In this document: positions 5,788-38,840 of the stretch, one piece after another
How the letters are laid out: every line of letters starts with the position of its first letter
Position numbering within the stretch: the first letter of the stretch is position 1
Source of the DNA: a virus
Lineage: Duplodnaviria; Caudoviricetes
Virus record (IMG/VR): IMGVR_UViG_3300009873_000008
Location: 8,944-72,943 of that record
DNA length: 64,000 nucleotides
Reading direction: 5' to 3' (one strand)
Notes under the pieces: generated by a model
What the model was told of the DNA's origin: nothing
Seen by the model: only the letters and a program-made list of their open reading frames with translations
Database searches by the model: none
Program-made: the position numbers and the translations under genes

Positions 5788-6117
5788 GTGACACCCGAAG
5801 AGCGCACGCCTGAGTGGATGGCCGATGCCATCATGGTTGTGCTGCGCAAAGAACCCAATCTGACCGAGCGGTTCGGGATCCGCACGTTGGTCCTGGCTCT
5901 CCTCAAGGGCGAGGCGGACATTGAAGAGCGCCCGTGCAGGAAGACCAACGCCTGGGACCGCGACCACCTCTGCGGATTCGGTGGCGCACCTGGGAAAGTC
6001 AGAGTGACGTGCGAGCGCAGCGGCGGACTCCTCTACGACGAGATCCGAGACTGCGAGACGTGCCGGGGCACCGGCACAGAGCGCCGACTCAAGTACCGCT
6101 ACCAGGCGTACGATTGA
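5788..6117 (+). CDS. Hypothetical protein with DnaJ-like CxxCxGxG motif
   Basis: CETCRGTG. Confidence 0.55.
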   Translation: MTPEERTPEWMADAIMVVLRKEPNLTERFGIRTLVLALLKGEADIEERPCRKTNAWDRDHLCGFGGAPGKVRVTCERSGGLLYDEIRDCETCRGTGTERRLKYRYQAYD

Positions 6118-6508
6118 GTTCAGCGATTGAGCCGACCAGGTCGACCACTGGCCACACGATCACGAATCGCGGTGTCTCGTCTCCGTAGTCCCGCACTACA
6201 GCGTGAGCGAGGAGCAAGTTCTCGCGCTCGTTACGGGCTCTCGCCAACGCAATCGCATCGTCGATCGAAGCGAAGCGCGTCGCTTGGTCGAACTCGGTAG
6301 TCGCGATCGAGTCGGCACGACGGAGCGGACCATCGCGAAGAGTCCAGCCGGCGAGCAGACGAACGTCACACTCACTTGAGATCTGCGCGGCCGGATCGAG
6401 GCGACAGACGAAACGATGCGAGAGGGCAAGGCTCAAACGAACCTCCCCTCTCAGCACCTTGTCCCTGGGAATGTGAGGAAAGACGAGCAACAGGAACGGT
6501 CGGCTCAC
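6089..6508 (-). CDS. Hypothetical protein with C-terminal tag VVDLVGSIA
   Basis: 139 aa, overlaps the upstream stop. Confidence 0.55.
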   Translation of the reverse strand: MSRPFLLLVFPHIPRDKVLRGEVRLSLALSHRFVCRLDPAAQISSECDVRLLAGWTLRDGPLRRADSIATTEFDQATRFASIDDAIALARARNERENLLLAHAVVRDYGDETPRFVIVWPVVDLVGSIAELNRTPGSGT

Positions 6509-7008
6509 GACAGCGCGCGACGCACCGCCGAGATCAGCGCAACCACCGACTCCTGGCTCTGCCCGAAGGCAGTGTTGCTGCCCACTGCCGCCGTCACGAT
6601 CGCCGAGATCGCCGAGAGCCGCGCAGCCGACTCAACGCCGTTCGATCCGTCCAGCACGGGGGTCGGCGCCGCGGCCGTTGCGGGTGCGAGCGCGGGACGA
6701 CCGCGACGACCGCCACCGACACGGGGCTCGCGCGCGGGGCGTCTGAGCGCCGCGTTCTTGTCGTCGAGCAGCATCTCGGGCGGATCGCCAGCGATCAGAT
6801 CCTTGATCCGCTGCTGGACCGACAGCATCGCGTTGGCGCGCCCACCTTGCCAGTTGTGCCAGGTGCTGTTGGTCACGCCGAGGAAGTGCGCGAGGCGCTT
6901 CTTCGGGATGCCGTACTTGGCCCGCCACGCGTCCAGGTCACCGAAGGTGACGCCGGTCCACTCCGGCTTCTTCTTGCTCTTGATGCTCAGTCGCTTCTTC
7001 TTGGCCAT
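6505..7008 (-). CDS. XRE-like HTH DNA-binding protein
   Basis: LDAWRAKYGIPKKRLAHFLGVTNSTWHNWQGG; GGG-TAGAAC at 7039-7047. Confidence 0.65.
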   Translation of the reverse strand: MAKKKRLSIKSKKKPEWTGVTFGDLDAWRAKYGIPKKRLAHFLGVTNSTWHNWQGGRANAMLSVQQRIKDLIAGDPPEMLLDDKNAALRRPAREPRVGGGRRGRPALAPATAAAPTPVLDGSNGVESAARLSAISAIVTAAVGSNTAFGQSQESVVALISAVRRALS

Positions 7009-7041
7009 CGGGTCCTCGCTTCCGCGTCCTCACTGCGGGTT

Positions 7042-7524
7042 CTACCCTCGCGCGGATCGAGTCGATGAGCCTTTCCGCTTCTTCTTGTCGAGGGCACCGA
7101 TCGTGTCGACGACAGAGACATTCAGCCAACGGGAGAGAGCGCTGAGTCGAGCGTAGAACGCTTCGTGAGTCGTCGTTGACATGGCCCCCCGAAAGGGCCT
7201 CCGTTGTTCCTGGTTGGCCGCTCGAATGAACTCGACGGCCTCGGCGACTCCGGGCATCCCATCCGCCGGTTCGCGCGAGAAGGTAAGCCTGGCCTCGTCC
7301 CCTCGGGTAGCCACGTTGATGGCTCGACTGATCGTCTTGTGAATCAGTCCAAGCTGCTTGTAGCGCATCAGCACAGCGATCCCCGGCGTAACTGTAAAGC
7401 TGACAGCGATCGGATCGGATTGGATGGCCGCCTTCCGCTTCAAGGTTCCTCCGTAATTGTCCGCTATGTAAGAACTAAGCGAGTCCAGCTGCTCAGGACC
7501 GGTGTCGCTCAAGCCACCGCTCAA
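7042..7524 (-). CDS. Accessory paralog family A protein
   Basis: Shares SDPxxVSFT, RLTFSR and RWLNxxxVxxIGA[LM]DKK with 8197..8559; start uncertain. Confidence 0.6.
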   Translation of the reverse strand: MSGGLSDTGPEQLDSLSSYIADNYGGTLKRKAAIQSDPIAVSFTVTPGIAVLMRYKQLGLIHKTISRAINVATRGDEARLTFSREPADGMPGVAEAVEFIRAANQEQRRPFRGAMSTTTHEAFYARLSALSRWLNVSVVDTIGALDKKKRKGSSTRSARG

Positions 7525-7822
7525 GCCGGATGAGCAGCCGCCTGGCCTGTCTTACCAGGCTCTCGACCGCCTCGTCGTCCTCGGCCAAGTGGGCGCGGCC
7601 GATCTCGTGAGCGAGCCAGTCGGGCAACAGCAGCCAGTGGGACATGCAGAAGAGCCGCGGGCGCAACACCTGCGCCTCGCAGCCCTCGGCGCAGCAGTCT
7701 TCGACGACACCGCCCATCCGTATACGTTGCCCCACGGCCGTCCAATCACTCCAATGAAAACAGCGGCGGTGGTAGCTAGACTGGAGACGGTCAGCGAGGT
7801 GTGCGCCTACCGTTTTCCCCAC
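7493..7822 (-). CDS. Small Cys/His zinc-finger-like protein
   Basis: CCAEGC...FCMSHW; start uncertain. Confidence 0.45.
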   Translation of the reverse strand: MGKTVGAHLADRLQSSYHRRCFHWSDWTAVGQRIRMGGVVEDCCAEGCEAQVLRPRLFCMSHWLLLPDWLAHEIGRAHLAEDDEAVESLVRQARRLLIRLERWLERHRS

Positions 7823-7948: not shown

Positions 7949-8200
7949 TTATCGCCGTCGCGCCTTCTTGCGCTGCTTATTGCGCTTCCCGACCTTCTTG
8001 CGCGTCTTGCGCGTCTTTCGACTCGCGGTCGCGGGAGCACCACACTCCGGCGACGTTGGGGTCCGCCGGCCGTTCGCGAGATAGTAGACCCAGCGCCCAT
8101 CTTCCGCGTCGTTGCGGGCCGCGCACCATCGTCGCGCGGCGCCGCAGCACGCACAGACCTGCACGATGAACCACTCCCGATCGACCCACTCGTGCGTCAT
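7949..8200 (-). CDS. Small basic protein with Cys motif
   Basis: ATGA overlap at 8197-8200; CACC; Lys/Arg-rich tail. Confidence 0.5.
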   Translation of the reverse strand: MTHEWVDREWFIVQVCACCGAARRWCAARNDAEDGRWVYYLANGRRTPTSPECGAPATASRKTRKTRKKVGKRNKQRKKARRR

Positions 8201-8559
8201 GAGTTTTCCTTCTTGTCCATGGCGCCGATGATCGAGACAGCGTCGTAGTTCAGCCACCGCCTGATCGCCCACGCGCGGCGCGAGAACCCCTGACGAGTTG
8301 CCGGACTGATCCTACGCGCTTTGTCCTCACTACAGATGCGCAGGAAGGGGAGCAAGCTCTCCGCGTCTGCCACATCGAGATACCCCGGCAGCCTTGAGAA
8401 AGTCAGGCGGCCCGAGTCGTCCAGCATGGCTCGAATGGTCTGCCTCCATTCGGTCTTGGTCACGTCCTTCATGGACAACATCAGCGTAGCCCGCATCACG
8501 TCAGACAGCGTGAAGGACACCGTAACTGGATCGCTGCTCATCGACCTCCGTCTGGCCAC
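8197..8559 (-). CDS. Accessory paralog family A protein
   Basis: Similar to 7042..7524; TAGGAC 6 nt upstream of GTG. Confidence 0.65.
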   Translation of the reverse strand: MARRRSMSSDPVTVSFTLSDVMRATLMLSMKDVTKTEWRQTIRAMLDDSGRLTFSRLPGYLDVADAESLLPFLRICSEDKARRISPATRQGFSRRAWAIRRWLNYDAVSIIGAMDKKENS

Positions 8560-8589
8560 GACTCAGTCCTACCAGGGTATGACGACGGG
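8560..8589. promoter_or_regulatory. Back-to-back divergent -10 elements
   Basis: TGG-TAGGAC (minus, 8566-8574) and GGG-TATGAC (plus, 8575-8583), each 6 nt from a GTG start. Confidence 0.6.
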
Positions 8590-9156
8590 GTGAATCCGAC
8601 GCTGATCGAACAGAACGACGAGCCCTGGCTGCTCCTGGGGCTCGATACACGGTTCGAGACCGACGTGAAGCCCACCGGGATGTTCCTTGGCCTCTCGGGC
8701 CGCATCGTCATAGCCGACACCGGTTCGGACCTGATCGCCAGCGTAGCGAGCCTGGACAGCGACCCCGACAAGCTGCTGCGCTTTCCGGTTGTGGTCTCGA
8801 CCTACCGATCCAGACAGGTCGATATGTGGGTGTGCCACATGACTCACGCCCGGCGTCAGCGGTTCGGTGGTGCGTTTGACCTCCTACGGTTCTCGGGCTA
8901 CGACTGGGCTCCGGCGAGCATGGTTCGCGGTGTCGGAGCCGATGCCGCCGAAGCGACGCGCAGCTACATCCGCCAGATCGCCGGCTACAACACCGGTCAG
9001 TCGTGGCAGATCGTCCCGCTGATCGTCGCCGCGGCCGAAGGTGACGGACGTCCCGGGCCCCGCGTCCTCGAACGCGCGCTAGCGTGTTTCCTGAAGACAG
9101 GCCGCGTTACCGACATGACGCGCCGCTATTCCACGAAGTTCACGAGACCGCAGTGA
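8590..9156 (+). CDS. Accessory paralog family B protein
   Basis: LIASVASLD tag followed by FPVVV; QIVPLIV. Confidence 0.6.
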   Translation: MNPTLIEQNDEPWLLLGLDTRFETDVKPTGMFLGLSGRIVIADTGSDLIASVASLDSDPDKLLRFPVVVSTYRSRQVDMWVCHMTHARRQRFGGAFDLLRFSGYDWAPASMVRGVGADAAEATRSYIRQIAGYNTGQSWQIVPLIVAAAEGDGRPGPRVLERALACFLKTGRVTDMTRRYSTKFTRPQ

Positions 9157-9413: not shown

Positions 9414-9974
9414 GTGAGCGTGGAGCAGTTCGGGCTGTGGATCTACCGAGGTTACAAGCGCGGCGTGGTCAAGCTCGCGCTCTCGGTCAGGCACCGACAC
9501 GGCTCGCATGACCTTCTGCTGTCCTCGGGCGTGCATCTCTCAGCCGTGCCGTCGAGTCGTCTCCACTCCCTGGCCAGTATCGACCGGTCGCTACCGATCG
9601 TCGAGTCAGTCGCGACGCTGAACTCGCTGCGCTTCCCGTTGCTCGTGAACTTCTGGGCATGCCGGTCCGACGTCGGTGTCGATTACGTCCGCGCTCAGGG
9701 CGGCGGGTGGTCCGTCGAGTTCGATGACGAGACCCCGCCCGAGATCGTAGTCTTCCGCAGTGGCGGTCTATCAGGCTGCTTCGACTACATCGACGGCGAC
9801 TACCCCGACGAGGAGCGGGCGCGCTTGCGCGTCACCGCGGCGCTTCAGCAGCGAACACCTGCGATCGGCGTTGAAGTAGTTCCGATCTTCGTTCGTGGAC
9901 CCCACGGTGGACCGGAGAACATCGCTCAGTTGCGAGCAGACCTGGCAAAGTTCCGAGCGGGAGACCTCCAGTGA
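9414..9974 (+). CDS. Accessory paralog family B protein
   Basis: IVESVATLN tag followed by FPLLV; EVVPIFV. Confidence 0.6.
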   Translation: MSVEQFGLWIYRGYKRGVVKLALSVRHRHGSHDLLLSSGVHLSAVPSSRLHSLASIDRSLPIVESVATLNSLRFPLLVNFWACRSDVGVDYVRAQGGGWSVEFDDETPPEIVVFRSGGLSGCFDYIDGDYPDEERARLRVTAALQQRTPAIGVEVVPIFVRGPHGGPENIAQLRADLAKFRAGDLQ

Positions 9975-10318
9975 GACGGTCCACTGACGTCGAAGTCCTC
10001 CTTCCTCCCGACATCACGAAGTCGGTCATGGGGCTCATTCGGTCTGGCCGATTCGAGGCGTCGTGCGATCTGCGCGGTTTCCTCGGTCGACACCGTCACA
10101 CCCACACGCCCGCACGCCTACGCTTCGTGTTCGGTCCGGCAACGCCCGACGCCTTCGGTCTGTCAGACGCCACGATGGTCAAGTCGGCTCTCGACGAACT
10201 CGGGCGCCTGCCCACCGACTTCTCCTCGTTCGATCCCCGCGAAGTGCGATACCTGGCCGGCGAACTGAACAAGTGGCTCAGTCGGCCGCTCGTTGATGCG
10301 ATCGGGGACTTGGCGTGA
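9971..10318 (+). CDS. Hypothetical protein (family A-like), C-terminal LVDAIGDLA
   Basis: GTGA-coupled. Confidence 0.6.
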   Translation: MRRSTDVEVLLPPDITKSVMGLIRSGRFEASCDLRGFLGRHRHTHTPARLRFVFGPATPDAFGLSDATMVKSALDELGRLPTDFSSFDPREVRYLAGELNKWLSRPLVDAIGDLA

Positions 10319-10692
10319 GCACCTACCTCGTTGTGCGCGTGCGGCTCTCTGCGCGGCAGCTTGAGCGGCTGCTCCTCTGCGGCGACGAGTCGCAGATTCT
10401 CCGCCGCGTCTGTGAGAAGACGACTGGCTTCCTGAACTACTACGCCCGGTGGACCAACAAACACGCTGGTGCGTTTCCTTACCCGTCATCACAGATGGCG
10501 ATGGCTGACGCAGTCCTCGACAAGCCGCGAGGCCGAAAGGTGGTCGTTCAACTACAAGACGCGCCCTCTTCCGTTCAGCGTCGCAGAACGCTCGGCACAG
10601 TGCTCGGCACCACGGACGAACCGCTTCGAGTGGCGCGAATCGCGTGGCCGATCGGGACGCTCGTCGAGTCGATAGGTCGTCTGAATGGCTGA
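10315..10692 (+). CDS. Hypothetical protein, C-terminal LVESIGRLN
   Basis: GTGA-coupled. Confidence 0.6.
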   Translation: MSTYLVVRVRLSARQLERLLLCGDESQILRRVCEKTTGFLNYYARWTNKHAGAFPYPSSQMAMADAVLDKPRGRKVVVQLQDAPSSVQRRRTLGTVLGTTDEPLRVARIAWPIGTLVESIGRLNG

Positions 10693-11639: not shown

Positions 11640-11729
11640 ACGTCAGTACGTGCATCGCTTCGCGTCTACAGGAAGGCGTGAAGCGCGTCGTAGATAGTGG
11701 CAGGACTCCGAATGGTAGCGGGAGATTCT

Positions 11730-11972
11730 ATGAGCACTGACGTTCTGGGACCCGGAGCGCTCGTCAGAACAGCCTACGGTATGACCCGTTATGGACGAAT
11801 CCTCCAGATCGATCCTCGGCCTGCTAGCTCCGACGCACGATGGGAGGCAGTGGTGTTCTGGCGCGACGCGAAAGATCCGCAGTCCGTTAGCGCGTACGTG
11901 TTGTCGGCCGACGTACCCATCATAGAACGGTTAGCGCTCATGGGCTGGCTATCGGAATTGGACGCGGCATAG
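11730..11972 (+). CDS. Small SH3/KOW-like protein
   Basis: PGALVRT...GRILQI; IIERLALMG tag. Confidence 0.5.
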   Translation: MSTDVLGPGALVRTAYGMTRYGRILQIDPRPASSDARWEAVVFWRDAKDPQSVSAYVLSADVPIIERLALMGWLSELDAA

Positions 11973-12605: not shown

Positions 12606-12967
12606 TGAGCGAGCGAATGAGGACGAATCCGTCCTCGCGCCCCCAGCGCCCCGAGGGCAAGCAGGTCGTCGCACGCTTTCACCACGGGCAGGTACCCGCG
12701 ACAACGACCGCTGCCATGATGATCGCCGACCCCCAGCCTACGACGACCATCCGCGACCTCAAGCCGACCGTCGAGGCGAAGCGCGTGGTCATGTTGGAAC
12801 GCACAGGCAAGCTCACGATCCGGCCCGACCAGTTGAAGGCCATGCTCGCATCGCATGGCGTGGAGACGCCGGACACCGCCGAGATGAACCTCGACAACGG
12901 CTACCTCGTCCTGACCTGGCCCCTCAACACGGAGGTGCTGGACGAGAAGGCGGAGCCGGCGCCGTGA
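12602..12967 (+). CDS. Hypothetical protein
   Basis: 121 aa, coupled. Confidence 0.55.
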   Translation: MMSERMRTNPSSRPQRPEGKQVVARFHHGQVPATTTAAMMIADPQPTTTIRDLKPTVEAKRVVMLERTGKLTIRPDQLKAMLASHGVETPDTAEMNLDNGYLVLTWPLNTEVLDEKAEPAP

Positions 12968-13620
12968 AGGCGCCCCAGCAGTGGTACGACGCCTGGACCG
13001 ATGCTGACGGCTCCGAGACGCTGCGCGACGAGTGGGAAACCTGGACCAGCCAGGCTGACCTGGTCGATCCCGCTGAGATCGACGTCAACACCCTACGTTG
13101 GTCGCCGCCCGTGTCGGTGCTCGTCAACGAAGTTCCCGAGCAGATCGTCCGCATCGTTCACGTCAGCCCGAAGCAACGACGCGGCAAGAAGCTCATCAAG
13201 GTGGTGAACTTCGCCGGCATCTCGACCGTGCTCGATACGGACGTGGTCCAGCCGGTGTCAGTGGTCGACGCGATCAGCTTCCTGGATGACGCCGCTCTGT
13301 GGTGGCAGATCATCCGTGGTGAGCGCGCCGAGCGGCAACATCTCGACGAAGTCAACCAGGACTTGGCGGTGGGCAGCCCCGTCAAGATCCTGGGGCCCCA
13401 GGGCACCGCCCAGGAGAGTCTCAGGCTCTGGGCTAGCCACCTCACCAAGCCGCCCGAGAGCCTCCTGGCGGACCTCTCAGAGCGCGAGACAGGGCTCTGG
13501 CAGCACGCGCTGACAGGCCGAGTGGTCCGACCGCCGCGGGACGTCGGAAGGCGCCTGCGCGTCCAGATCGACGGGGACGAGCCTGTATCCGTCGGGTGGT
13601 ACTCGGTCAGACCGGCGTAA
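12964..13620 (+). CDS. Protein with two SH3/KOW-like segments
   Basis: GTGA start at 12964; AVGSPVKIL...GRVV; VVDAISFLD. Confidence 0.55.
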   Translation: MKAPQQWYDAWTDADGSETLRDEWETWTSQADLVDPAEIDVNTLRWSPPVSVLVNEVPEQIVRIVHVSPKQRRGKKLIKVVNFAGISTVLDTDVVQPVSVVDAISFLDDAALWWQIIRGERAERQHLDEVNQDLAVGSPVKILGPQGTAQESLRLWASHLTKPPESLLADLSERETGLWQHALTGRVVRPPRDVGRRLRVQIDGDEPVSVGWYSVRPA

Positions 13621-13682: not shown

Positions 13683-14024
13683 ATGCGAGTCGACGTGACC
13701 TTCGACCGGGACGAGCCGACCCTGATCGAGCAGATCGGCGAGTTGTCGCTCGCCGACGGCGAGGAACCCGAGACCCGCTGGGCTCTCTCGGTCGAAGTGA
13801 AGTGCTTCGGCCGGGACACTCCCGGAACCTACTGGCAGCCGCCCGAGTCGATGGAGATCGACCCGGTTCGCGCCTTCCGCGAGACACTCGACGAGGAAGG
13901 GCGCCCCCGCGACGTCGAGTTCGACCTGAGCAAGCTCTCCAGTGCTGAGTACGATCGCATGATCGACGCTCTGTACGAGAGCGTGCGCGAGCAGCGTTAC
14001 GACGACTGCTACGGGGACAACTGA
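13683..14024 (+). CDS. Hypothetical acidic protein
   Basis: GGAGGAG SD before ATG 13683. Confidence 0.65.
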   Translation: MRVDVTFDRDEPTLIEQIGELSLADGEEPETRWALSVEVKCFGRDTPGTYWQPPESMEIDPVRAFRETLDEEGRPRDVEFDLSKLSSAEYDRMIDALYESVREQRYDDCYGDN

Positions 14025-14027
14025 CCG

Positions 14028-14219
14028 ATGGCCGACCCGACCATGGACCCCGAGCGCATCGCAGCCTGCCTGACGAAGGCTGGAATCCCGGTGCCGCCCG
14101 GTGAACTCCTCTACTGCACCGTCCAGATGCAGTACCAGAACTGGTTCGTGCGCACCTCCAAGGGCTGGCTTTGGTGGAGCGGAAAGGAATGGAAGCCTTC
14201 CGTCTACGGTCCTCTGTGA
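14028..14219 (+). CDS. Hypothetical protein
   Basis: 63 aa in an operon. Confidence 0.5.
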   Translation: MADPTMDPERIAACLTKAGIPVPPGELLYCTVQMQYQNWFVRTSKGWLWWSGKEWKPSVYGPL

Positions 14220-14713
14220 ACGTGCGTCTGGTCGAAACAGAACCCGGCCGCCGCTACATCGCCGTCGATCGACCGCAATCGACATTGCTTCTGGCCCCCA
14301 ACTGCACCGCTGACATCATCGTGGGCAGCGGTCGGGTCGGCTTCGAGTGCGGCTTGGTCGATCTGATCGGCGCGATCGACCAGCCGTTCCGAATGCCACT
14401 CCCGTGCATGGTCTACGCCGATGCCAGGCGCCGGGAATCGCATCGATACGTTTGTCGGATCAACCGCTGGTTCAATCGGGCCGGCGAGTTCACCATCTAC
14501 TCCGATGACCGGCTCGGCAAACTGCACTTCGGAGAGAGCTTCAACGCAGTCGTCAAGTGCGCACTTCACTATGCGCGCACCGATCTGCAACCACTCGGAG
14601 TCACGTGGGAAGCAGTGCCCTTCTGGCGATCTAGTCGAAACGACGAACACTGGTGCAAGAACGCGCTTCGTGAGTCTCTCCGCAAGCGGCAGTTCGAGGT
14701 GCCGCGGTGGTGA
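14216..14713 (+). CDS. Accessory paralog family B-like protein
   Basis: GTGA start; LVDLIGAID tag. Confidence 0.55.
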   Translation: MNVRLVETEPGRRYIAVDRPQSTLLLAPNCTADIIVGSGRVGFECGLVDLIGAIDQPFRMPLPCMVYADARRRESHRYVCRINRWFNRAGEFTIYSDDRLGKLHFGESFNAVVKCALHYARTDLQPLGVTWEAVPFWRSSRNDEHWCKNALRESLRKRQFEVPRW

Positions 14714-15276
14714 AAGCAGCGCGACCCCGCCTGGTGCTCTACAACCACCCGGATCCCCTCGCGCCGAAGCCGGAGCGTCGGGCCGAGCAACTAGCGCTTC
14801 TCTTGGGCCAACGGACTGATCGGAGCTTCATCGACTTCTATTCCGTACTGCTGCCGAACGGTCACATCATTCAAGCGAGACAGTGGCAGTTCCTGGAGCT
14901 AGACGTAGTATCCCGAGTGGGAGCGCTTAACGATTACGACGCGCGCCCCGTGTTTCCTCTGTTCGGCTACTTGTACTGGGACTCTGGTCGCCAGGTGTGC
15001 CGGGTGCGTTACTGTCCGGCTTGGGACTACAGCTACCTGTGCGATCTGCCGTTCTCGCGCTTGCCGTCAGCCTTGGCCAGACCGGCCTACGCTGTAGCGC
15101 GAGGCAACCGCTCCGCTGAAAAAGTCTGGGTCGAACGCGTCAAAAAGCACTACCGTTCTTCCGACTTCCAGGTCGTACCGATTGTCGTCGGACGCAACAG
15201 CGTCGAAGAGTTCCGAACTCAGACTGAGCGTCTCGGGCTGCCGCTCCGAACCATAAGAGTTCCGAACTCAGACTGA
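14707..15276 (+). CDS. Accessory paralog family B protein
   Basis: VVSRVGALN tag, FPLF, QVVPIVV. Confidence 0.6.
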   Translation: MVKAARPRLVLYNHPDPLAPKPERRAEQLALLLGQRTDRSFIDFYSVLLPNGHIIQARQWQFLELDVVSRVGALNDYDARPVFPLFGYLYWDSGRQVCRVRYCPAWDYSYLCDLPFSRLPSALARPAYAVARGNRSAEKVWVERVKKHYRSSDFQVVPIVVGRNSVEEFRTQTERLGLPLRTIRVPNSD

Positions 15277-15795: not shown

Positions 15796-16410
15796 CAACT
15801 CGGCGAGCCGCTGTCGTTGCCAGGCGCGTTCCTCCGAGGAATGAGCGCAGAGTCGGTAGCACGCAGTAACCATCTCGGCGCACATGGGCCGCAATCTGCG
15901 CGCGTGTTGTTGTAGTTGGCTCAGACGCCACTGTTCGTCGAGTTGACTGCGACTGTCCGCAAGCCAACGCGCCAATGCCTGTGCTCGCTCCAAGTGTTCG
16001 TACCGACCTACCGGACGCGCAGCCGCGCTCTTGGCGGCGTGCTCAAGGCACTCTGATGACCACCTGTACAGAAGATCATCAGAGAGATGTTCACCGAGCG
16101 CCTTGACGGCCGGCAACAGATCCTGGGGAAGGACCATGGCCCCAGTTCCGCTGCACTTGAAGCAGCTTAGGCTGCGCTCCTCGTCGCTCTCGTCTCGGGG
16201 CGAACGAGACCGGCAAGAGGCGCACGGCACCGAGATCGACTCGTTGCACATCGCAAGCGCTTCGCGCCCGTAGGGTAGCCCGAAGTGCAACGCCAGTTGG
16301 ACGTTGAATGGGTCCAGCTGCCCGCTACGCAGACGCGCGACCAGCACCGTTGCCGGGTCGTCGTCGCCCAATCGGCGCTGGCGCTCAAGCCGTCGGAGTC
16401 GTTCGTCCAT
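15784..16410 (-). CDS. Hypothetical protein with MDERLRRLER N-terminal module and CxxC/CxxCxGxG motifs
   Basis: Start set at ATG 16410. Confidence 0.6.
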   Translation of the reverse strand: MDERLRRLERQRRLGDDDPATVLVARLRSGQLDPFNVQLALHFGLPYGREALAMCNESISVPCASCRSRSPRDESDEERSLSCFKCSGTGAMVLPQDLLPAVKALGEHLSDDLLYRWSSECLEHAAKSAAARPVGRYEHLERAQALARWLADSRSQLDEQWRLSQLQQHARRLRPMCAEMVTACYRLCAHSSEERAWQRQRLAELLVA

Positions 16411-16987
16411 CCAAACACTCAGGATGGCGACCAACTAACGGTCGCACCACATTTCTCCACTCGCTCAGTTGCTGTCGGTTCTTGGGTCGGAACACGTGAG
16501 CCCGCGAGATCGTCTCGCCGATCATGACCACTGGTTTGAACTCGACGAACCCAAGTTTGTGGACACGACCGATCCGCTCCCAGCGCTTGGTGAATGTCTC
16601 CCATGCGTTGCGGATGGCAGTTATCGGATCGAGATCGTTGACGAGCACCGAGAACAGTAGCTCACTCCGACGTCTGCCCATCGCCGCCGTCCAGATGCCG
16701 ACGCGTGTGGTCTTGATCCGATCTCTCGTGCAGACCGGACTCACCATTACCGGCAACATCAGTTCGAGACGCTCCATCGAGCCGACCATCGCTACCAGAT
16801 CTGGCTTGAGCAGATTTTTGGCGGTGACGTACTTGACAGCCCTGCTGGTGAGCACCACGAAAACGGAGCGCGCCGGATTGATTCCCACCACCAGTCCGTA
16901 TCGATCCGGGATCCGGGGTTTACCGTCGTCCTGCGGCTCGTGGTGAACGAGTACGATGTCGCCCAGCGCCGGGCTCTCTTGCGTCAC
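16385..16987 (-). CDS. SH3/KOW-like protein
   Basis: GTGA start; LGDIVLV...YGLVVGI; LVAMVGSME tag. Confidence 0.55.
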   Translation of the reverse strand: MTQESPALGDIVLVHHEPQDDGKPRIPDRYGLVVGINPARSVFVVLTSRAVKYVTAKNLLKPDLVAMVGSMERLELMLPVMVSPVCTRDRIKTTRVGIWTAAMGRRRSELLFSVLVNDLDPITAIRNAWETFTKRWERIGRVHKLGFVEFKPVVMIGETISRAHVFRPKNRQQLSEWRNVVRPLVGRHPECLDGRTTPTA

Positions 16988-17574
16988 TGGCTCGGAGTTT
17001 CCGGCGACTCGGGGGGCTCCGGCGACTCCACCTGGAGAACACCGACACTCATCATGAGCGCGATGACAAACTCCTCGACCGTGTCCTGCACCTTGGGCGG
17101 CCCGATTACCGCAGGCTTGGACCGACCCATGGTTCGAGGATCGGCGTAGACGAGAAGCACGATGGCCCGCTCTCGGACCAGTTCCAGCACGTGTTTCCCG
17201 TTCCGAGTAGAAAACGCGCCCGGCCACACTTCGCGCGCGAGCACCGCCGGAATGTCGTACCTCTTCTCGATCTCAGCCATCATGTGGCGCTGTAGCTCGG
17301 TCGAGAGCGCCACGTCGAAGATGATTCCAACTCGGTCGGGCCTGTGTTCCCGCTGGCCGGCCCCACGTACCCACAAGCAATGATAGTCGCGGCAAGCCTG
17401 CGGCCTGGTCTGATAGATCTTGCAGCCAGGCACCGCCCGCGAGTTACGCCTGGGCGAGCAGTGCTGACAAAGCGTCCACTCCGGCTTATTGAGTTGGGTG
17501 ATACCGACGACCGTGCAGCAGGCCGTGCAATCGCCGCACGATCTTGTCTTCATGACGGGTAGCGCGCGGCTCAC
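16984..17574 (-). CDS. YkgJ-like Cys-cluster (CxxCxxCC) protein
   Basis: CGDCTACC...CQHC...CKIYQTRPQACRDYHCLW. Confidence 0.8.
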   Translation of the reverse strand: MSRALPVMKTRSCGDCTACCTVVGITQLNKPEWTLCQHCSPRRNSRAVPGCKIYQTRPQACRDYHCLWVRGAGQREHRPDRVGIIFDVALSTELQRHMMAEIEKRYDIPAVLAREVWPGAFSTRNGKHVLELVRERAIVLLVYADPRTMGRSKPAVIGPPKVQDTVEEFVIALMMSVGVLQVESPEPPESPETPSQ

Positions 17575-22361: not shown

Positions 22362-22370
22362 GTCCCTGTC

Positions 22371-26852: not shown

Positions 26853-27431
26853 GTGCATCCGTCGGAACCATACGACGTCTACTGGTTCTTCCGCCCGGAC
26901 CTGCAACTCAGCGTCGTAGGGATCGTAATCGCTTCGCAACCTCATCGGGTCTACACCGGACTCCAACGCGAGCCCTTCGATCTTTTCCATCGCTCATTCT
27001 TGCTCGCGCCTTTCGACATCGTGGAGCGCGTGGGCCTTCTCAATAGGCACTGCTCGTTCTGCATAACTGGCGGTCGTCTGCGCGCCAGAGCGACGAAGGG
27101 CCACGACGAATACGGCAACCCACTGACAACCGAGTGGGACGGGTGGGAATGGTCCGACGGGTCTGCTCGGCCGAGACCCGAATTGCCGATGTGCTGGTGC
27201 ATGTTCTGGCAGATCGTCGGCGGCACGGCGTGCGCAAACGACTGCGTAGTGAAGTTCATCAGTAAGACGAGCAGCACAAACGCGACCGACTTCCAATTCA
27301 CCGAGCAGTCGGGAAGCCGTATCGCCAAAGGTCGTCCCCGTTCTCGCCAACGTCCACTCTCTCGGGACGAGGCGGCGGCCCGGCGCCAGCGAAGTCAGAT
27401 GCTGAGTCGTCGTCCGCCTCGGGCCCGGTAG
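26853..27431 (+). CDS. Hypothetical Cys/Trp-rich protein
   Basis: IVERVGLLN; 3' end overlaps the opposite-strand HTH gene. Confidence 0.5.
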   Translation: MHPSEPYDVYWFFRPDLQLSVVGIVIASQPHRVYTGLQREPFDLFHRSFLLAPFDIVERVGLLNRHCSFCITGGRLRARATKGHDEYGNPLTTEWDGWEWSDGSARPRPELPMCWCMFWQIVGGTACANDCVVKFISKTSSTNATDFQFTEQSGSRIAKGRPRSRQRPLSRDEAAARRQRSQMLSRRPPRAR

Positions 27432-27732
27432 CCACCACAGGCTTCGTAGTCGTAGCCTCGGGCTCGGGCTCGGGCTTCGAGTCGTCCGATTCGTCCGATT
27501 CGTCCGAGGCGCTCGGCGTCAACTTCGCGTTGTCGGGCAACTTCGCGTTGCAGATGATCGCCAGAGTCTCTTCGGGTTTCATCGCGAGCACCTTCAAGAG
27601 CGCCGCGGCGACCGGGGGGATCTTCTGGCCATTTTCCCAACGTATTAGTGTGGCACGATTTATGGAAAGTCGATCGGCCAGCTGCCTCTGGGTGAGCCCG
27701 GTACTTAGGCGAGCCCGCAGCGCCAGGTTCAC
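27298..27732 (-). CDS. XRE-family HTH protein with acidic tail
   Basis: GLTQRQLADRLSINRATLIRWENG. Confidence 0.75.
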   Translation of the reverse strand: MNLALRARLSTGLTQRQLADRLSINRATLIRWENGQKIPPVAAALLKVLAMKPEETLAIICNAKLPDNAKLTPSASDESDESDDSKPEPEPEATTTKPVVATGPEADDDSASDFAGAGPPPRPERVDVGENGDDLWRYGFPTAR

Positions 27733-28082
27733 TCGATCGAGCCGATCTGATCGATGATCGGAAAGTCGGGCGTGCGCGCGACGATCGGCTTCGCTCCGGG
27801 CGACTTGGGCACCAAGACGAAGTAGGACTCCTCGAACTCGTCCTCGCCCACGATCGCGTGATCGTGGATCTCCAGCAGCAGCCCGCGGCTGTCTGGATGC
27901 AGATAGAGACGACGCTCCCAGTAATCCTCGCCCGCGCTCCAGTTGATGCCCTCGATGCTGCTTTGGATCTCGGCGTGATTGAGACCATCCCCGAGGCGCT
28001 GCCGCCGGTAACGCGTCTCGCGCAGGTCGAGGAGCCGGAGCAGTTCGCGAATGTCGAGCGCTTGCGACTGATCGCCTGGCAT
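27729..28082 (-). CDS. Hypothetical protein, C-terminal IIDQIGSIE
   Basis: GGG-TAGAAC (28089-28097) 6 nt before ATG 28082. Confidence 0.6.
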   Translation of the reverse strand: MPGDQSQALDIRELLRLLDLRETRYRRQRLGDGLNHAEIQSSIEGINWSAGEDYWERRLYLHPDSRGLLLEIHDHAIVGEDEFEESYFVLVPKSPGAKPIVARTPDFPIIDQIGSIE

Positions 28083-28141
28083 GCGCAAGTTCTACCCGTT
28101 TACCGAGACGGAACGGAGCGGGGTATCACAGGGTTACGCCC

Positions 28142-28678
28142 ATGAACACGACCATCGTCGAATCGACCTGTCCCAAGACCTCCGGCAACCAGAAGAAGTA
28201 CCCCTTCGTGCGCTTCAGGGAGAGCCGCACAGTTGACGACTCGGCCTTCTTCGTGTTCACAGACGGTTCGAGCCTCGGCGCTTACGCTGCTGTGATCGCG
28301 CGGGGCGCCGAGATCGTAACCGTGGGCGGATTCTCACCGCCGACGCACACACGGAACGTGGGCGCCGAACTCCGGGGCGCCAAGCTGGGACTGGAGCACG
28401 TTCCCGATGGCGCACGAGTGGTGCTCGTCTTCGATTATCTCGGCGTGGGCGCCTGGATGACCGGCAACTGGCAAGCCCGCGACGTCGAGGTACAGGAGAT
28501 CACCGGTCAGATCAGATCGATCATCAAGACCAAGTGCCTCGATGTTGTGTTCGTCCACCACCGCGGTCACCAGAAGCCGCGAGACGAACTCGACCTCTTC
28601 ACGCGCTACAACGCGGCAGCCGACGCGCATTGCTCGAAACTAGCGAAGGCCGCCAAGGGGCAGACCGATGGCCGGTGA
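28142..28678 (+). CDS. rnhA: Ribonuclease HI
   Basis: FTDGS, AEL, VFD, HHRGH, NAAAD acidic catalytic motifs. Confidence 0.8.
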   Translation: MNTTIVESTCPKTSGNQKKYPFVRFRESRTVDDSAFFVFTDGSSLGAYAAVIARGAEIVTVGGFSPPTHTRNVGAELRGAKLGLEHVPDGARVVLVFDYLGVGAWMTGNWQARDVEVQEITGQIRSIIKTKCLDVVFVHHRGHQKPRDELDLFTRYNAAADAHCSKLAKAAKGQTDGR

Positions 28679-29138
28679 GTCCAACCACCGTTCGCTGACG
28701 GCAGACGAAGTGTTCGACAAGTTGACCCAGGAGGCACAAGCGTCGGTGCCCCAGTACCACGGTTCGGTGCAGGACAAGCTCGACGCGCTGGAACGGTTCG
28801 GCAACGCGACGCTCAAGCTGGTAGCTTCCATGCGCGGCGGGGACCACGACGCCAAGATCGCGCGGTCGGCTAGCGAAGCGGCCGAGGCGGCCGATGGAGC
28901 AGCGGAGGCCATCTTGGCGCTGATCGACGCGATCAACGCAGCCAAGATCCAGCGAAAGCACCCGGGCACCGCCGGGGTGCCGGCGCTCGAAGCGCTGTAC
29001 GATCAGGCGCAGACCCTCAGCAACAACCTGGCGAAGTACTCCCTCTACTTCGAGAAGCTGGTCCCCGGATTCGTCGAGCGAGTTGCCGATCTGGACAAGA
29101 CACAGAGCGAGGAGGAGAGCAATGACCTCCCCTTCTGA
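28668..29138 (+). CDS. Hypothetical helical protein, FVERVADLD tag
   Basis: 156 aa. Confidence 0.6.
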   Translation: MAGESNHRSLTADEVFDKLTQEAQASVPQYHGSVQDKLDALERFGNATLKLVASMRGGDHDAKIARSASEAAEAADGAAEAILALIDAINAAKIQRKHPGTAGVPALEALYDQAQTLSNNLAKYSLYFEKLVPGFVERVADLDKTQSEEESNDLPF

Positions 29139-32985: not shown

Positions 32986-33159
32986 CTACCTTCGACCGGT
33001 GACGCGCGCACTGGTGAAGACCGTGGAGGGAATGTCCCTCAGTGTCCCACCACCGTTGGCCACTGGATTGAGATAAGTCGGCGAGCCGTAAGGCTTACCG
33101 GCGTCTACTTGGATAGACTTCAGTGGCCGTCTCGTCAACTTGAGCTTGGACTTCTTCAT
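32986..33159 (-). CDS. 57-aa protein with LTRRPLKSIQ motif
   Basis: Hand translation MKKSKLKLTRRPLKSIQVDAGK...; ATGA overlap; below the ORF-track cutoff. Confidence 0.55.
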   Translation of the reverse strand: MKKSKLKLTRRPLKSIQVDAGKPYGSPTYLNPVANGGGTLRDIPSTVFTSARVTGRR

Positions 33160-33536
33160 CGGGTGTCCTCGGCTCCGTGCCGTTCAATGAGCTTCTTGAC
33201 GACCACTTCGCGCAGAAGCAGCTTCTTGTGGTGGACATCGACGGTGCTCGGCTGGTGCTCATCGTCCAACGCTGCAATGCGATCCACGACCGTCACGCGT
33301 GCGTTGAGAAGATCCTCGGCCAGCGCCATGAACGACGGCTCGCGACTCTCGGACGCAAGCCGAGCGACCTCCATGGCAAGCAACCTGACCCCCATTGGGT
33401 ATTCGTAGGCCCTTCGCAGATCGAGCGTGCTGGACGTGTCGTCCCAGGCGTGTTCGATGACCGACCGGACCTGGGCCGGAAGGTTGACTTGCGCGGCAGG
33501 ACGAACGAAGGTCAAGCGGAATCTTCTGGCCACCAC
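33156..33536 (-). CDS. Hypothetical protein, VVDRIAALD tag
   Basis: Start uncertain. Confidence 0.5.
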   Translation of the reverse strand: MVARRFRLTFVRPAAQVNLPAQVRSVIEHAWDDTSSTLDLRRAYEYPMGVRLLAMEVARLASESREPSFMALAEDLLNARVTVVDRIAALDDEHQPSTVDVHHKKLLLREVVVKKLIERHGAEDTR

Positions 33537-33564
33537 CGAATCCAGTCGGAAGATCACATGGATA

Positions 33565-33573
33565 AGGTAGAAC
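33565..33573 (+). promoter_or_regulatory. Putative -10 element AGG-TAGAAC, leaderless
   Basis: 6 nt before ATG 33580. Confidence 0.55.
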
Positions 33574-33579
33574 ACGACC

Positions 33580-33990
33580 ATGAGTGAGCGGAAGCCCATT
33601 TCCATCGACTTCCTCATCCCCGGAACTCCAGATGCCGCCAAGGACGAGATCGACCGCAAGCTAGAAGACCTGGAGCGGCAGATGGAAGCCGCGGCGCAGG
33701 AGCGACTGAAGGCGCAGGAGCAAGCGGAAGGCGCAGTTCTCCAGGCCGTCGGTCAGGTGGACGAGGATGATCCCGACCGCCTCCTGGAAGCCCTGGTTCA
33801 GAACATGAAGGAGACGGGCGAGCTACCGGCCTCGGCAGACGACAAGAAGAGTCCCGACGACGTGGTGAAAGACATCGCCAATCGGGCGAAGACCGCAAGG
33901 CACAACGCACACCTCACGCAACTGCGCATGATCGAGATGGAACGACGTCGCCAACGCCGGGCGGCGCGGGAAGGAAAGGGAAAGAAGTGA
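33580..33990 (+). CDS. Hypothetical coiled-coil protein
   Basis: 136 aa. Confidence 0.65.
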   Translation: MSERKPISIDFLIPGTPDAAKDEIDRKLEDLERQMEAAAQERLKAQEQAEGAVLQAVGQVDEDDPDRLLEALVQNMKETGELPASADDKKSPDDVVKDIANRAKTARHNAHLTQLRMIEMERRRQRRAAREGKGKK

Positions 33991-35353: not shown

Positions 35354-36664
35354 CTACTTCTTGGCTACGATGTCCTGGGCGCCGCGCTTGTAGCTCCACC
35401 TGTCCGGGGACAGGTCGTGGTGCATGGCGATCCCGGGCAGGCACTGCTTGATCGCCTCGCCCATCCACTGTGCGACGGTGCGCAGCGTCGGGTGGACCGT
35501 CTCCCCGGAACGGAGTTCGGCGATGTAGACGGCCGACGGCAGTGAGCAGGCCATCACGACCGGCACCTGGTAGCCCATCGGGATGTAGTACTGCTTGACC
35601 GTCGGGTCAGCCTGGAGCGCTTGGACACGCGCCGTGATCCGAGCGATCTCCGCCTCGGTACCGGACGGCAGGTTCTCCAGGTACCAGCCGTGGAAGCCGC
35701 GGCGGATGGTGAGGAGCGGCATCTCCTGAACGGCCGACCGCTGGCGCTGGATGTCGCGGTAGCTCCCGAAGTCGATGTTGAACTCAAAGTCGATGCTGCC
35801 GAAGCGCCGGAGGCGCTGATGCATCTCCGCCCTGGGCGGCCTGCTTGAGAGCAGATCGTGGAAGGCTCCCAGCGCGTCCACATTCAGCCGGTTCGTGTAG
35901 CGGGCCCCGTCCCACATGGCCGCATAGCCGTCGAAGTAGGCAAAGCGCGCCATGCTGCGCGCGATGTACTCCTCCTCGGCGTCGTAGCGCTTGTGCCCGA
36001 AGCTGGACGGGTAGCGCTGACCAAGAGCATCGTGCAGCGCTTCCGAGATCTCTCGAACCTCGACCAGCGGATGGTGGCGCATTTCCTTGAGGTGGTCGTT
36101 CGTCTGGCGCAGGTTCGTCGACCAGGCGACGAGCGTCGTAGCGCCGGCCGGTAGAAGTGAGCGCGCGATGTCGAACGCGCGCGCCTTGATCGCCTTCTCC
36201 CACTGGCCGGACTTCTCATCCGCACGCTTGGGATACCGCTCGCTCAGCGAATCGACCAGAGCGGCCAGCGACTTGGCGTAGAGCGCCATCCACTCGGCCT
36301 GGATCTCCTCGCCCTCGGCGATCCCAAGCGGGTTCAGGCAGCCCTGCGTGAACATGTCCAGGTAGCGGGTGCTGGCTTCCTGCCCGCAGTAGAGGGGCGT
36401 GTCCTGAATCGCCTTGGCCGCAAGCATCGAGACCTGCTCGACGAACATCGCGATGAAACCGCAGTCGCCGATGCTCTTGTGCCCGTATCCGACATAGAAC
36501 TTCTCGTGGAAGGCCGACGAGCCGGTCTCACGAACCTTCTCCAGGTGCTCGGTCACTGACTTGGGACTGCGTGAGTACATGGCCTGAAGCATGGCCATGT
36601 CCTCGGGACTCGGAACGTCACTTCCGTCCAGTACGACGATCTTTCGTTCGGCGGTCTTGGGCAC
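35354..36664 (-). CDS. thyX: Flavin-dependent thymidylate synthase (two-domain ThyX-like)
   Basis: YGHKSIGDCG, QEASTRY, ARSLLP, DIQRQRS; AGGAGG SD 7 nt before GTG 36664. Confidence 0.85.
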   Translation of the reverse strand: MPKTAERKIVVLDGSDVPSPEDMAMLQAMYSRSPKSVTEHLEKVRETGSSAFHEKFYVGYGHKSIGDCGFIAMFVEQVSMLAAKAIQDTPLYCGQEASTRYLDMFTQGCLNPLGIAEGEEIQAEWMALYAKSLAALVDSLSERYPKRADEKSGQWEKAIKARAFDIARSLLPAGATTLVAWSTNLRQTNDHLKEMRHHPLVEVREISEALHDALGQRYPSSFGHKRYDAEEEYIARSMARFAYFDGYAAMWDGARYTNRLNVDALGAFHDLLSSRPPRAEMHQRLRRFGSIDFEFNIDFGSYRDIQRQRSAVQEMPLLTIRRGFHGWYLENLPSGTEAEIARITARVQALQADPTVKQYYIPMGYQVPVVMACSLPSAVYIAELRSGETVHPTLRTVAQWMGEAIKQCLPGIAMHHDLSPDRWSYKRGAQDIVAKK

Positions 36665-37646
36665 GCGCTTGCCTCCTGAATCGAGCAACGACTGTTCGCC
36701 AGGACTGTTCATACCAGTCGGCGCCGACATCAAGAGCCTGGCCGCGGTGAATTACAAGTAGCCGAAACGAGACCCCTTGAGCTATGACAGCACGAGCTTT
36801 AGCACACACTTGGGCAAAGATGGTGCGGTCGTAGATTCCAAGCGTAACTGCGCTTTTCACTTCGACGACCTGACCGCGAGACTTGACGAAGGCGTCGGGA
36901 ACGTAGGTCCGATTGGTTCGTCCCGCGAAGGCGTAGCGGAACGTCGGACGACCTTCGACGGCCGTGAATGCAAGATCGTTCGGAGCGATGCCTTCCGAGA
37001 GCATGATCTCGACGGCCCGTCCCTCCGATCCTTGAACCATCACCGTCCGCGTTCCGACTCGGATCGGACGTCTCCGGTACTGCGATCGGTCGCACAGCGG
37101 ACAGCCATAGCCCGAGAGCAGCTGGTTCGGCGACGTCTGCCAAACGTGGCCTTTTGAGCATCGATGTCGGATCGAAGTCAGCGCAGTCTCGTAGCGATCA
37201 AGCACGACCACCCCGAGAGCAAACGCCTCGGCCGCGTACGTCTCGTGTGTCTTCCGACGCCTCGGTCTCGCTTGGTAGCACTGACGGCAGCCAGCGCTGC
37301 GATGCACCACGTTCGCTGGCTTGGCAAAGAACGACCCGTGAGTCGGACACAGGTATTCGAGCTTCTTGTGAGAGCCGCAGTAGGCCCCAACGACTCGCAA
37401 CCGATCGCCGTGAATCCGGCGAACCATCGCAACGTGGTCGTCGTGTTTGGTGCGCTGTCGATCCCACGCACACTTCGCACACCCGTGACCGGACTCAACG
37501 TTGGACGGAAGAGCGCTGAACCGGCCGTGCGTGGCGCACTTGTAGACAACTCGCCGAAGGGCGTGTCGATAAGTGCCAACCACCGTCAGCGCTCCGGCGT
37601 GTTTTCGCGTGACCCGACGAACGTGCTCCTCGTGTGTTTTGGCCAC
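36618..37646 (-). mobile_element. Free-standing homing endonuclease: three Cys/His zinc-ribbon repeats plus PD-(D/E)XK domain
   Basis: Repeats C-x2-[HK]G...G-x-[AG]-C-x2-C; YVPDAF...VVEVKS. Confidence 0.8.
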
Positions 37647-37684
37647 GCTTATCAGCGTAGCCAGAGCTACTATCCTTTGCCAGC

Positions 37685-37858
37685 CTAGCCGGTGTAGTAC
37701 TGGTCCATGAACTTGCCGGAGCCGACGCTTCGCACCCTCTCCAGATGGTCGTCCACGGACTGCGGACTGCGCGAGTAGAGCGCCTGGAGCATCGCCAGGT
37801 CTTCGGGGTTGGGCACGTCATGCCCGTCGAGCACTCGGATCTTGCGTGGCTTTGGCAT
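37685..37858 (-). pseudogene. Truncated 5' duplicate of thyX (57 aa)
   Basis: MPKPRKIRVLDGHDVPNPEDLAMLQALYSRSPQ...YYTG*; 38 of 57 residues identical to the intact ThyX N-terminus by hand alignment. Confidence 0.9.
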
Positions 37859-37901
37859 TCACTCTCTCCGCTTCTAGAAATCAGTCACAGGATGAGCACG
37901 G

Positions 37902-38840
37902 TCATGCAGGCGGCTTGGTCCTGCCTCGCTTGAGCGGCGCGGAGTGGGCGACACCCCCACGGTCGAAGTACCGCACCGGAAGCGGACTCATGGTATCGAC
38001 GTCGATGACCAGATCATTGGGGTCGGGCCACGCGCTGTGATCGTCGCTCATGCGATTGAGGATCGGGTATCTCCGTCCGTTGATGAGCGCCACAACACGA
38101 CGGGTGCGGAACTCGTCCGTGTGCAGCCGCGGACCAAGCGTGCGCTCCAATAGATCGTGGACGCACACTCCGAGTAGCCGCGAGAGCAGCGAGGCTCGCA
38201 CGTGGGCGTTTCCAGACCAGTCGCCGATTCGTCGATAGTATCGACCGACGGTCAGCCCATCGCCTTCGAGATGCCCGATCTTGCTAATCAGATCGGGCGG
38301 AATCGGCTCTGAGCGCTGCTCGACCTGTCGAAAGCTGGCGCCAGATCGAGTGACCGTCAATACGATCCTCTGCGAGCCATCGACGTTGTAGTAGTGAGGG
38401 TGGTTCGTGCGAGCGACCCGGTCAACCGCGTCTTGATACTTGCGCCGCACGAACTCCAGGTGGGAATAGCAGTGCCATCTGAGTTGCTCGATCGACCGAA
38501 CGTCCAACTTGTCGCGTCTGATGAGCAAGCCGTGCGCGTTTCGACGTTCCTCGGTAAAGAACGCGTACCACCGACCGACGGGCCGGCTCCACGAGTAGAT
38601 CAGACCATCGTCGCCCAGCGTCTGGCCACGCTTCAACGGCCCACCGGTGGAGAGCGCATAGGCACCGGGACGACCGGATAGGCCGGGAAAATCGGAAGCG
38701 CGGTAGCCGATGGGCGTCAGGCCGCGGGCAACGGGAAAGATCGGTACCCGCTGGGCGATCTCACAGAGAGTCTGATACCTCGGCTCCGGCTTCTCCGATT
38801 CCTCGATCCTCGTCCTGCTCTGGACCTGCGCTAGTCTCAC
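37902..38840 (-). CDS. Hypothetical protein
   Basis: GGG-TAGAAC 6 nt before GTG 38840; LISKIGHLE. Confidence 0.6.
   Translation of the reverse strand: MRLAQVQSRTRIEESEKPEPRYQTLCEIAQRVPIFPVARGLTPIGYRASDFPGLSGRPGAYALSTGGPLKRGQTLGDDGLIYSWSRPVGRWYAFFTEERRNAHGLLIRRDKLDVRSIEQLRWHCYSHLEFVRRKYQDAVDRVARTNHPHYYNVDGSQRIVLTVTRSGASFRQVEQRSEPIPPDLISKIGHLEGDGLTVGRYYRRIGDWSGNAHVRASLLSRLLGVCVHDLLERTLGPRLHTDEFRTRRVVALINGRRYPILNRMSDDHSAWPDPNDLVIDVDTMSPLPVRYFDRGGVAHSAPLKRGRTKPPA

Follow-up and report, generated by a model that had tools for sequence, protein, structure and literature searches.

A short peptide motif shared by small accessory proteins of a probable large sludge phage: a candidate docking tag

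Why would many small and apparently different phage proteins share the same nine-residue peptide, often right beside the stop codon? This question is raised by a stretch of 64,000 nucleotides (hereafter the window) that comprises bases 8944-72943 of the virus record IMGVR_UViG_3300009873_000008, which totals 72,943 bases and originates from an activated sludge metagenome. An earlier note, made from the sequence alone, had described a short amphipathic peptide tag in 26 open reading frames (ORFs) between positions 6089 and 38840 and had proposed that it serves for docking or sorting. We show here that the motif is real, conserved at the protein level and within the clade, modular and restricted to accessory genes; about one third of the small accessory proteins of the fragment carry it near their end. 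The reading that we favour, with a probability of roughly 60%, is that the tag is a docking peptide which would be read by one shared partner.

Genes were called with a codon-usage model and each protein was shuffled individually, the accessory set being 71 proteins (10,003 amino acids, aa) between 6 and 38 kb and the remainder 41 proteins (12,524 aa). All 26 nine-residue peptides were present in frame in the ORFs to which they had been assigned, and the fourteen said to lie near a stop codon do end 0-14 residues short of it. In the accessory set a loose pattern matched 30 times against 3.0 expected from the per-protein shuffles, and 15 times against 0.38 when only the last 15 aa of the proteins were considered, while a strict pattern matched 21 times against 0.09. 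The loose pattern was at chance level in the other 41 proteins (5 matches, 3.3 expected). When the sites were scored leave-one-out with a ten-column matrix, 25 of 26 obtained 9.8-22 bits, the maximum of the shuffled proteome being near 11 bits; the copy at 11919-11945 obtained just 5.7 bits and is doubtful. About 24 of the 26 peptides are far above chance.

Reading frame and composition were controlled as well. Six-frame translation gave 29 matches of at least 12 bits, of which 28 fell in the frames of called genes (19,634 aa) and the last in shadow ORFs (about 80,000 aa). A sample of 99,669 aa from an Acidimicrobiales chromosome with 65.6% GC gave five such matches, none of them C-terminal, which corresponds to a rate of 0.05 per 1000 residues compared with 2.6 in the accessory proteins of the phage, a difference of about 50-fold. 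In the same sample the strict expression was about 35-fold and the loose one about 4-fold rarer than in the accessory proteins, the latter figure being low because real proteins hold many amphipathic helices. Chance or composition as the origin of the motif is ruled out by the shuffles, the shadow frames and the real high-GC proteome, and the enrichment and C-terminal bias implied by the earlier description are both upheld.

The consensus of the motif is [DPSTGN]-h-[IV]-[DES]-x-[IV]-[GA]-x-[LMI]. Positions 1, 2, 5 and 8 of the core are aliphatic, position 3 is D, E, S, T or A (mostly D or E), a small residue (G or A) occupies position 6, position 7 varies, and D, N, E, A, S or G is found at position 9, behind which the residues vary. 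The residue that precedes the core was outside the search pattern and is nevertheless D, P, S, T, G or N in every one of the 26 copies; proline is common at -4 to -1 upstream. Together, the cap residue, the pattern of positions and the upstream proline are the signs of a short helix that begins with an N-cap and a capping box. The motif thus reads as an N-capped short amphipathic helix of ten residues, cap residue included. A tryptophan is found five or six residues upstream in 8 of the 14 C-terminal copies. The 0-14 residues that follow the helix are polar and variable, and these short tails are probably disordered.

The third codon positions of the sites carry little information and the first and second positions much; only the former result is independent, because the sites were picked by their peptide pattern. 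Since third positions vary freely, no DNA repeat underlies the peptide, as the earlier note had maintained. A DNA-level repeat, promoter or recombination site is ruled out on this ground and also by the varying distance of the motif to the stop and to the next gene start.

The carriers are not all independent of each other. ORFs 8590-9156, 9420-9974, 14189-14713 and 14707-15276, all on the plus strand, align over their full length and form one paralogous family (F1) of 174-189 residues, in which the motif is an internal helix (8731-8757, 16.9 bits; 9597-9623, 15.7 bits, with 7/9 residues identical in the orthologue; 14354-14380, 17.9 bits; 14905-14931, 21.2 bits). Among 5.8 billion proteins searched, homologues of this family were found only in this phage and in a close relative, and AlphaFold2 gave no usable fold (predicted local distance difference test, pLDDT, 38). 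On the minus strand, ORFs 7042-7443 and 8197-8541 are paralogues, with tags at 7087-7113 (14 aa before the stop, 17.0 bits) and 8215-8241 (5 aa before the stop, 12.4 bits, retained in the orthologue). Outside the motif, similarity to another carrier was detected in only 6 of the 26, using blastp and hhalign of orthologue pairs with the motif removed; the hhalign comparison covered 632 of 1596 pairs and has low power, giving even the evident F1 family only 1-2% probability. With two paralogue families accounting for six copies (four and two) and with one weak copy, the description "26 unrelated" proteins was overstated. The number of carriers that may be counted as independent is about 20.

Pfam identified a WGR domain in ORF 21086-21379 (minus strand, residues 20-82) and part of the bL12 C-terminal domain in ORF 21921-22361 (minus strand), the latter exactly at the gathering score, and no Pfam family was found for the other carriers tested. 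Of the domains named in the earlier note, WGR and the bL12 C-terminal domain were hence recovered, whereas the winged helix was not confirmed. In many carriers the motif stands in a strand-turn-helix context and several look SH3-like with a tryptophan upstream.

The WGR protein is the most instructive of the carriers. Its tag (21095-21121, 22.0 bits, 2 aa before the stop) directly follows the domain, the helix beginning right behind the last strand. In the AlphaFold2 model, made with 11 homologues, the WGR domain has a pLDDT of 83-93 and the helix at residues 87-96 of about 50, which suggests that the helix is not confidently packed on the domain. Ten of ten WGR homologues keep the helix at identities down to 48%, while the 1-7 residues that follow it differ. 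On L023 a WGR homologue stops right behind its domain and has no tag; it adjoins a capsid gene whose product nearly matches that of this phage at the C-terminus.

A second case concerns the RNase H-like protein encoded at 28142-28678. This protein and its counterpart in the close relative are without the tag; in the orthologues from L018 and L020, which are 48-52% identical, it follows the final helix of the RNase H fold. In addition, the zinc-ribbon-like protein of 80 residues encoded at 24491-24733 (tag at 24497-24523, minus strand, 1 aa before the stop, 20.6 bits) matches the latter half of a protein from L018 and L020 that is built of two modules with one tag behind each, which shows how fusion can generate internal copies. 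As judged from these homologues, the tag has been gained or lost independently of the protein body. That it is portable is supported by its presence on proteins of different folds, namely WGR, bL12 C-terminal-domain-like, zinc-ribbon-like and, in relatives, RNase H.

Close relatives were not found by megablast and tblastn against phage records, nor in a first scan of IMG/VR. An exhaustive HMMER search with ORF 27729-28082 gave one orthologue cluster and one weak match (E 1.4e-4), and most carriers have a single orthologue cluster among billions of proteins, from a second sludge phage. More distant relatives were reached through the WGR protein; these are contigs of 76.5, 42.5 and 287.5 kb, the last (from ENA) being the source of L020, and the IMG/VR record G001 of 121.8 kb, which is syntenic with our record across NrdJ, ThyX, TerL and a 2061/2229-residue protein. 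In 21 aligned homologue pairs the pattern is retained in nearly all, with 70% identity in the motif against 55% in the rest of the protein.

As an independent test, a matrix trained on the window alone was applied to the relatives at a threshold of 12 bits. It found 14, 4, 9 and 8 matches in G001, L017, L018 and L020, against 0.74, 0.10, 0.10 and 0.12 in shuffled sequences. Twenty-six of these 35 matches lie within 15 aa of the protein end, a stronger bias than in the window, and are followed by tails made up of D, G, E, P, K and R, 1-13 residues long. Scored with this matrix, five related contigs in all bear the tag on many small proteins. Paralogues also occur in L018 and L020.

The tags of G001 cluster at 3-36 kb and 113-121 kb. 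Two loci in the second cluster are of a particular kind. At 112937-113437 (L031) a protein of 166 residues consists of the last 95 or so residues of a T4-type capsid protein with an insert of about 70 residues that carries the tag, and at 120353-121300 (L032) three small proteins share the tag followed by a helix of the form A-x-R-x-x-x-[YW]-D.

The tag had been called phage-wide, which was not borne out, as it is confined to accessory regions that have a promoter motif of their own. No tag was found in structural or nucleotide-metabolism genes of the window, nor in the 37-84 and 85-112 kb regions of G001; at a looser threshold of 11 bits there was one match only in the 37-112 kb of G001 that hold structural, nucleotide-metabolism and other large genes. 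NrdJ, TerL and Dcd contain nothing that reaches 8 bits, in line with the absence noted earlier, TerL having one match to the loose expression.

The octamer GGTA[GT][AG]AC occurs 21 times in the window, where 2.5 are expected, and all sites lie at 2392-39695, in the accessory half (for example 8576-8583, 22368-22375, 24740-24747 and 28089-28096). At six tagged genes at least it stands 6 nt before the start codon. It was not found in the structural half of the window, so that the tagged genes appear to belong to a transcription class different from that of the head genes. The octamer probably defines a promoter class for leaderless transcripts which the structural genes do not use. The T4 late promoter TATAAATA has no match within the window.

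The ten remaining copies with a C-terminal location are as follows. On the minus strand, the tag of ORF 6089-6508 (6122-6148, 15.6 bits) ends 10 aa before the stop, that of ORF 20201-20569 (20219-20245, 20.5 bits) 5 aa and that of ORF 23852-24172 (23861-23887, 21.5 bits) 2 aa before it, and all three are preceded by W-P, as is the plus-strand copy of ORF 10315-10692 (10660-10686, 18.6 bits), 1 aa before the stop. Two copies end at the stop itself, in ORF 9971-10318 (10289-10315, plus strand, 18.6 bits, retained in the orthologue) and in ORF 27729-28082 (27732-27758, minus strand, 19.7 bits, retained in an L017 homologue of 28% identity). On the plus strand, ORF 26490-26849 has its copy at 26778-26804 (11.7 bits, 14 aa before the stop), in a segment retained in the L018 and L020 homologues, and the doubtful copy belongs to ORF 11697-11972, 8 aa before the stop. 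The tag of the bL12 C-terminal-domain-like protein is located at 21966-21992 (14 aa before the stop, 18.0 bits) and is identical at 8/9 positions in the orthologue. ORF 28668-29138 (plus strand) has its tag at 29070-29096 (12.4 bits, 13 aa before the stop). The acidic tail of this protein closes with D-L-P-F and resembles the C-terminal tip of bacterial SSB proteins; an SSB domain was not found in it with Pfam.

Eight internal copies lie outside family F1. Those on the plus strand are 13261-13287 in ORF 12964-13620 (9.8 bits, the orthologue having G at position 6), 13722-13748 in ORF 13683-14024 (residues 14-22, 13.4 bits, 8/9 identical in the orthologue), 22960-22986 in ORF 22735-23208 (14.7 bits, 9/9 identical in the orthologue) and 27018-27044 in ORF 26853-27431 (21.5 bits, retained in a relative). 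On the minus strand the tag at 16772-16798 in ORF 16385-17227 (13.6 bits) comes after a stretch that by eye is SH3-like, and the others are 25587-25613 in ORF 25431-25967 (14.9 bits), 33264-33290 in ORF 33156-33617 (20.2 bits, 35 aa before the stop) and 38265-38291 in ORF 37902-38843 (14.3 bits), whose G001 homologue bears a copy in a similar location.

The GC content of the window is 62-66%. CheckV estimates the record to be 26% complete, which implies a genome of roughly 280 kb, and G001 to be 42% complete; other relatives are on contigs of 254.6 and 287.5 kb. The window is therefore a piece of a huge phage and not of a 73-kb genome, and its source is probably an uncultured sludge phage of about 280 kb. 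The major head protein is of the T4 type, since it matches phrog_138 and finds T4-like and huge-phage capsid genes by tblastn, and its gene adjoins those of the head maturation protease and the portal. For the class II ribonucleotide reductase NrdJ (40359-43307) the nearest cellular homologues are largely from Acidimicrobiia, including Microthrixaceae (43-47% identity), with metagenome-assembled genomes of Saccharibacteria mixed among them. Acidimicrobiia are on this account a candidate host group, and the NrdJ neighbours give a weak hint that the host may be an actinobacterium of activated sludge.

Other genes were observed in the accessory region and near it. An FHA-domain protein is encoded at 1363-2019 (Pfam E 7e-12). 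The ORF 37685-37858, of 57 residues, shares 64% identity with residues 1-59 of ThyX, whose gene is two genes off, and between the two lies a gene for a DUF7487/CapR-like protein with a zinc-finger match (35354-36664).

What could such a peptide be for? We hypothesize that this clade places a short helix, portable and self-contained, at the end of small accessory modules of many folds, and that one shared partner would read the helix and so bring together one fifth to one third of the accessory proteins at a common site or machine. Such a receptor could come from either the phage or the host, and binding could lead to concentration at a site, to prohead loading or to timed removal. This reading is suggested by the fact that the helix is short, autonomous and portable, that it is more conserved than its carriers and has come and gone independently of them, and that it is limited to one gene class and retained across the clade. 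By analogy with known systems the tag may be considered a kind of targeting or docking peptide, and no published description of such a tag was found in the literature.

Several observations weigh against this. No receptor was found among the proteins of the record; in particular, Pfam and PHROGs revealed no obvious reader (AAA+, vWA, BRCT or protease) in the accessory region, about 60 record proteins having been searched. Twelve copies of the window are internal and would fit a domain-boundary element equally well, and the tryptophan found upstream of more than half of the C-terminal copies could pack on the helix in the same chain. Deep common ancestry of many carriers is possible, given the low power of the profile comparison, and most candidate partners are unseen because the record is an estimated 26% of the genome. 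The earlier proposal accordingly stands as to a peptide that is conserved, portable, present on different folds and biased to the C-terminus, but its binding, and thus docking or sorting, is what we infer.

Among the closest parallels are peptides that are bound by a hub. The T4 gp45 clamp-binding tails, the SspB XB tether and the clients of the SSB tail are cases in which many clients use C-terminal peptides to reach one hub, and the tag resembles them in having many different carriers and one short, often terminal, peptide. However, clamp-binding or PIP-like peptides use aromatic pairs and the tag has no conserved aromatic position, and no tags were seen on the large non-accessory proteins of G001. 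To our knowledge, hubs of this kind have far fewer clients than one fifth to one third of the accessory proteins. Encapsulin cargo-loading peptides are also C-terminal, short and portable, with a glycine placed centrally among hydrophobic positions, and are recognised by a shell of the HK97 fold that is related to phage capsids. The tag is likewise C-terminal in 14 of the 26 window copies and in 26 of the 35 matches in relatives. The cargo peptides have the consensus G-S-L followed by a basic residue and are bound mostly extended, whereas the tag is an apparent N-capped helix with a variable position 7, an acidic or variable position 9 and no G-S-L-basic core. The encapsulation peptides of bacterial microcompartments are amphipathic helices at the termini of unrelated enzymes or between their domains, attached by poorly conserved linkers; they are about twice as long as the tag, and microcompartment shell genes were not noticed among the annotated proteins of the record fragment, although no search was aimed at them.

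One specific version of the docking reading is that the tag is a prohead-loading signal, in which case the helix would bind the scaffolding core or the inside of the capsid, and the proteins that bear it would be packed into the head and delivered with the DNA. It could be likened to the capsid targeting sequence (CTS) of T4 internal proteins, placed at the opposite end of the protein. The CTS of IPI-III and Alt is a short amphipathic peptide and the sole feature common to these diverse, fast-evolving proteins (PMC3012670). The tag is also short, amphipathic and common to diverse proteins, in a phage whose major head protein is of the T4 type and which encodes a head maturation protease, and it is encouraging for this version that the capsid-derived small protein of G001 carries the tag in its insert, with three tagged small proteins in the same 113-121 kb. 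The T4 signal is N-terminal, measures about 10 residues and is removed at an (L/I)-x-E site. The tag, in contrast, is C-terminal or between modules, with just one copy near an N-terminus; it differs in sequence, has neither such a cleavage site nor the invariant Glu that it needs, and belongs to genes of the non-structural promoter class, whose motif is missing from the structural half of the window. Moreover, the carriers include RNase H and a WGR protein. A separate and more CTS-like motif, E-A-[IV]-x-x-F-R-[SA]-L-D-E, is common to three proteins of the structural block (45487-46752, 46808-47845 and 51038-51484), once at the N-terminus (residue 7); it has the spacing of the tag with F-R at positions 5-6, and looks like a T4-type targeting or cleavage motif. 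For these reasons we regard prohead loading as an unlikely explanation.

The main rival that does without a tag is common descent. The helix would then be a structural remnant, the closing helix of one ancestral module, that stabilises its own domain. Gene duplication has been active, as seen in the four F1 genes, the 7042/8197 pair and the L018 and L020 paralogues, and the strand-turn-helix context of many carriers, with several SH3-like ones having the upstream tryptophan, is what would be expected; similar N-capped helices are also known inside ordinary folds such as I-CreI. This explanation is weakened by the WGR and RNase H cases, since these are old and unrelated folds with the helix outside both, since RNase H orthologues occur with and without it, and since the AlphaFold2 model does not pack it on the WGR domain. 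One copy is at residues 14-22 of its protein, and the motif is near-absent from the rest of the proteome and from a bacterial proteome of the same GC. We therefore find it rather improbable that the motif is such a remnant.

Timed removal is doubtful to a somewhat greater degree. The tag would here be a degron or a tether for a protease adaptor, through which a host or phage AAA+ protease clears the accessory class together. The near-C-terminal position followed by short polar tails, the limitation to one promoter class and the AAA_5 ATPase encoded in G001 are compatible with it. Nevertheless, degrons of the ssrA kind depend on conserved last residues and a free carboxylate, and the residues behind the tag are not conserved and number from 0 to 14. 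Internal copies would be hard to reach, the fragment yielded neither a protease nor an adaptor, and there is no AAA_5 match in this record.

Least probable of all is that the tag helices bind each other and gather the tagged proteins into an assembly or condensate: the amphipathic face with Gly or Ala at its centre would permit close packing at position 6, and two-tag proteins would be bivalent, but nine residues make a short helix for stable bundling, and the hydrophobic face has acidic residues on its flanks.

Two likenesses to known proteins were also considered and dropped. Against the PDB the tag profile gave weak matches to two helices of the bL12 N-terminal domain and to a helix of I-CreI (E 0.1-1.8). 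Pfam Ribosomal_L12_N has no match anywhere in the record, and the bL12 helices of four Acidimicrobiia/Actinomycetota genomes score at most 6 bits on the tag matrix, so that mimicry of the bL12 N-terminal helix was rejected as generic helix likeness. The LAGLIDADG motif is a helix that closes with a catalytic acid and a Gly, behind which comes a core of at least 100 aa; in an alignment to its consensus the acid would fall at position 5, which is I or V in the tag, 14 copies are C-terminal, and the I-CreI matches involve another helix. A search of the ESM Atlas yielded no lead.

Returning to the docking reading, we would tentatively suggest that this clade of T4-headed phages of about 250-290 kb may possess an undescribed addressing system, in which one receptor reads a movable N-capped helix and gathers one fifth to one third of the accessory proteome. 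That the tag exemplifies an undescribed sorting principle general to large phages is a real possibility. If one partner does read the helix, a peptide of ten residues would predict the destination of dozens of phage proteins that are annotated without a function, and would provide an experimental handle on the opaque accessory proteome of large phages. It would also be a portable tag with which foreign proteins could be directed inside infected cells, and the tagged and untagged RNase H orthologues would constitute a natural experiment on what the tag contributes.

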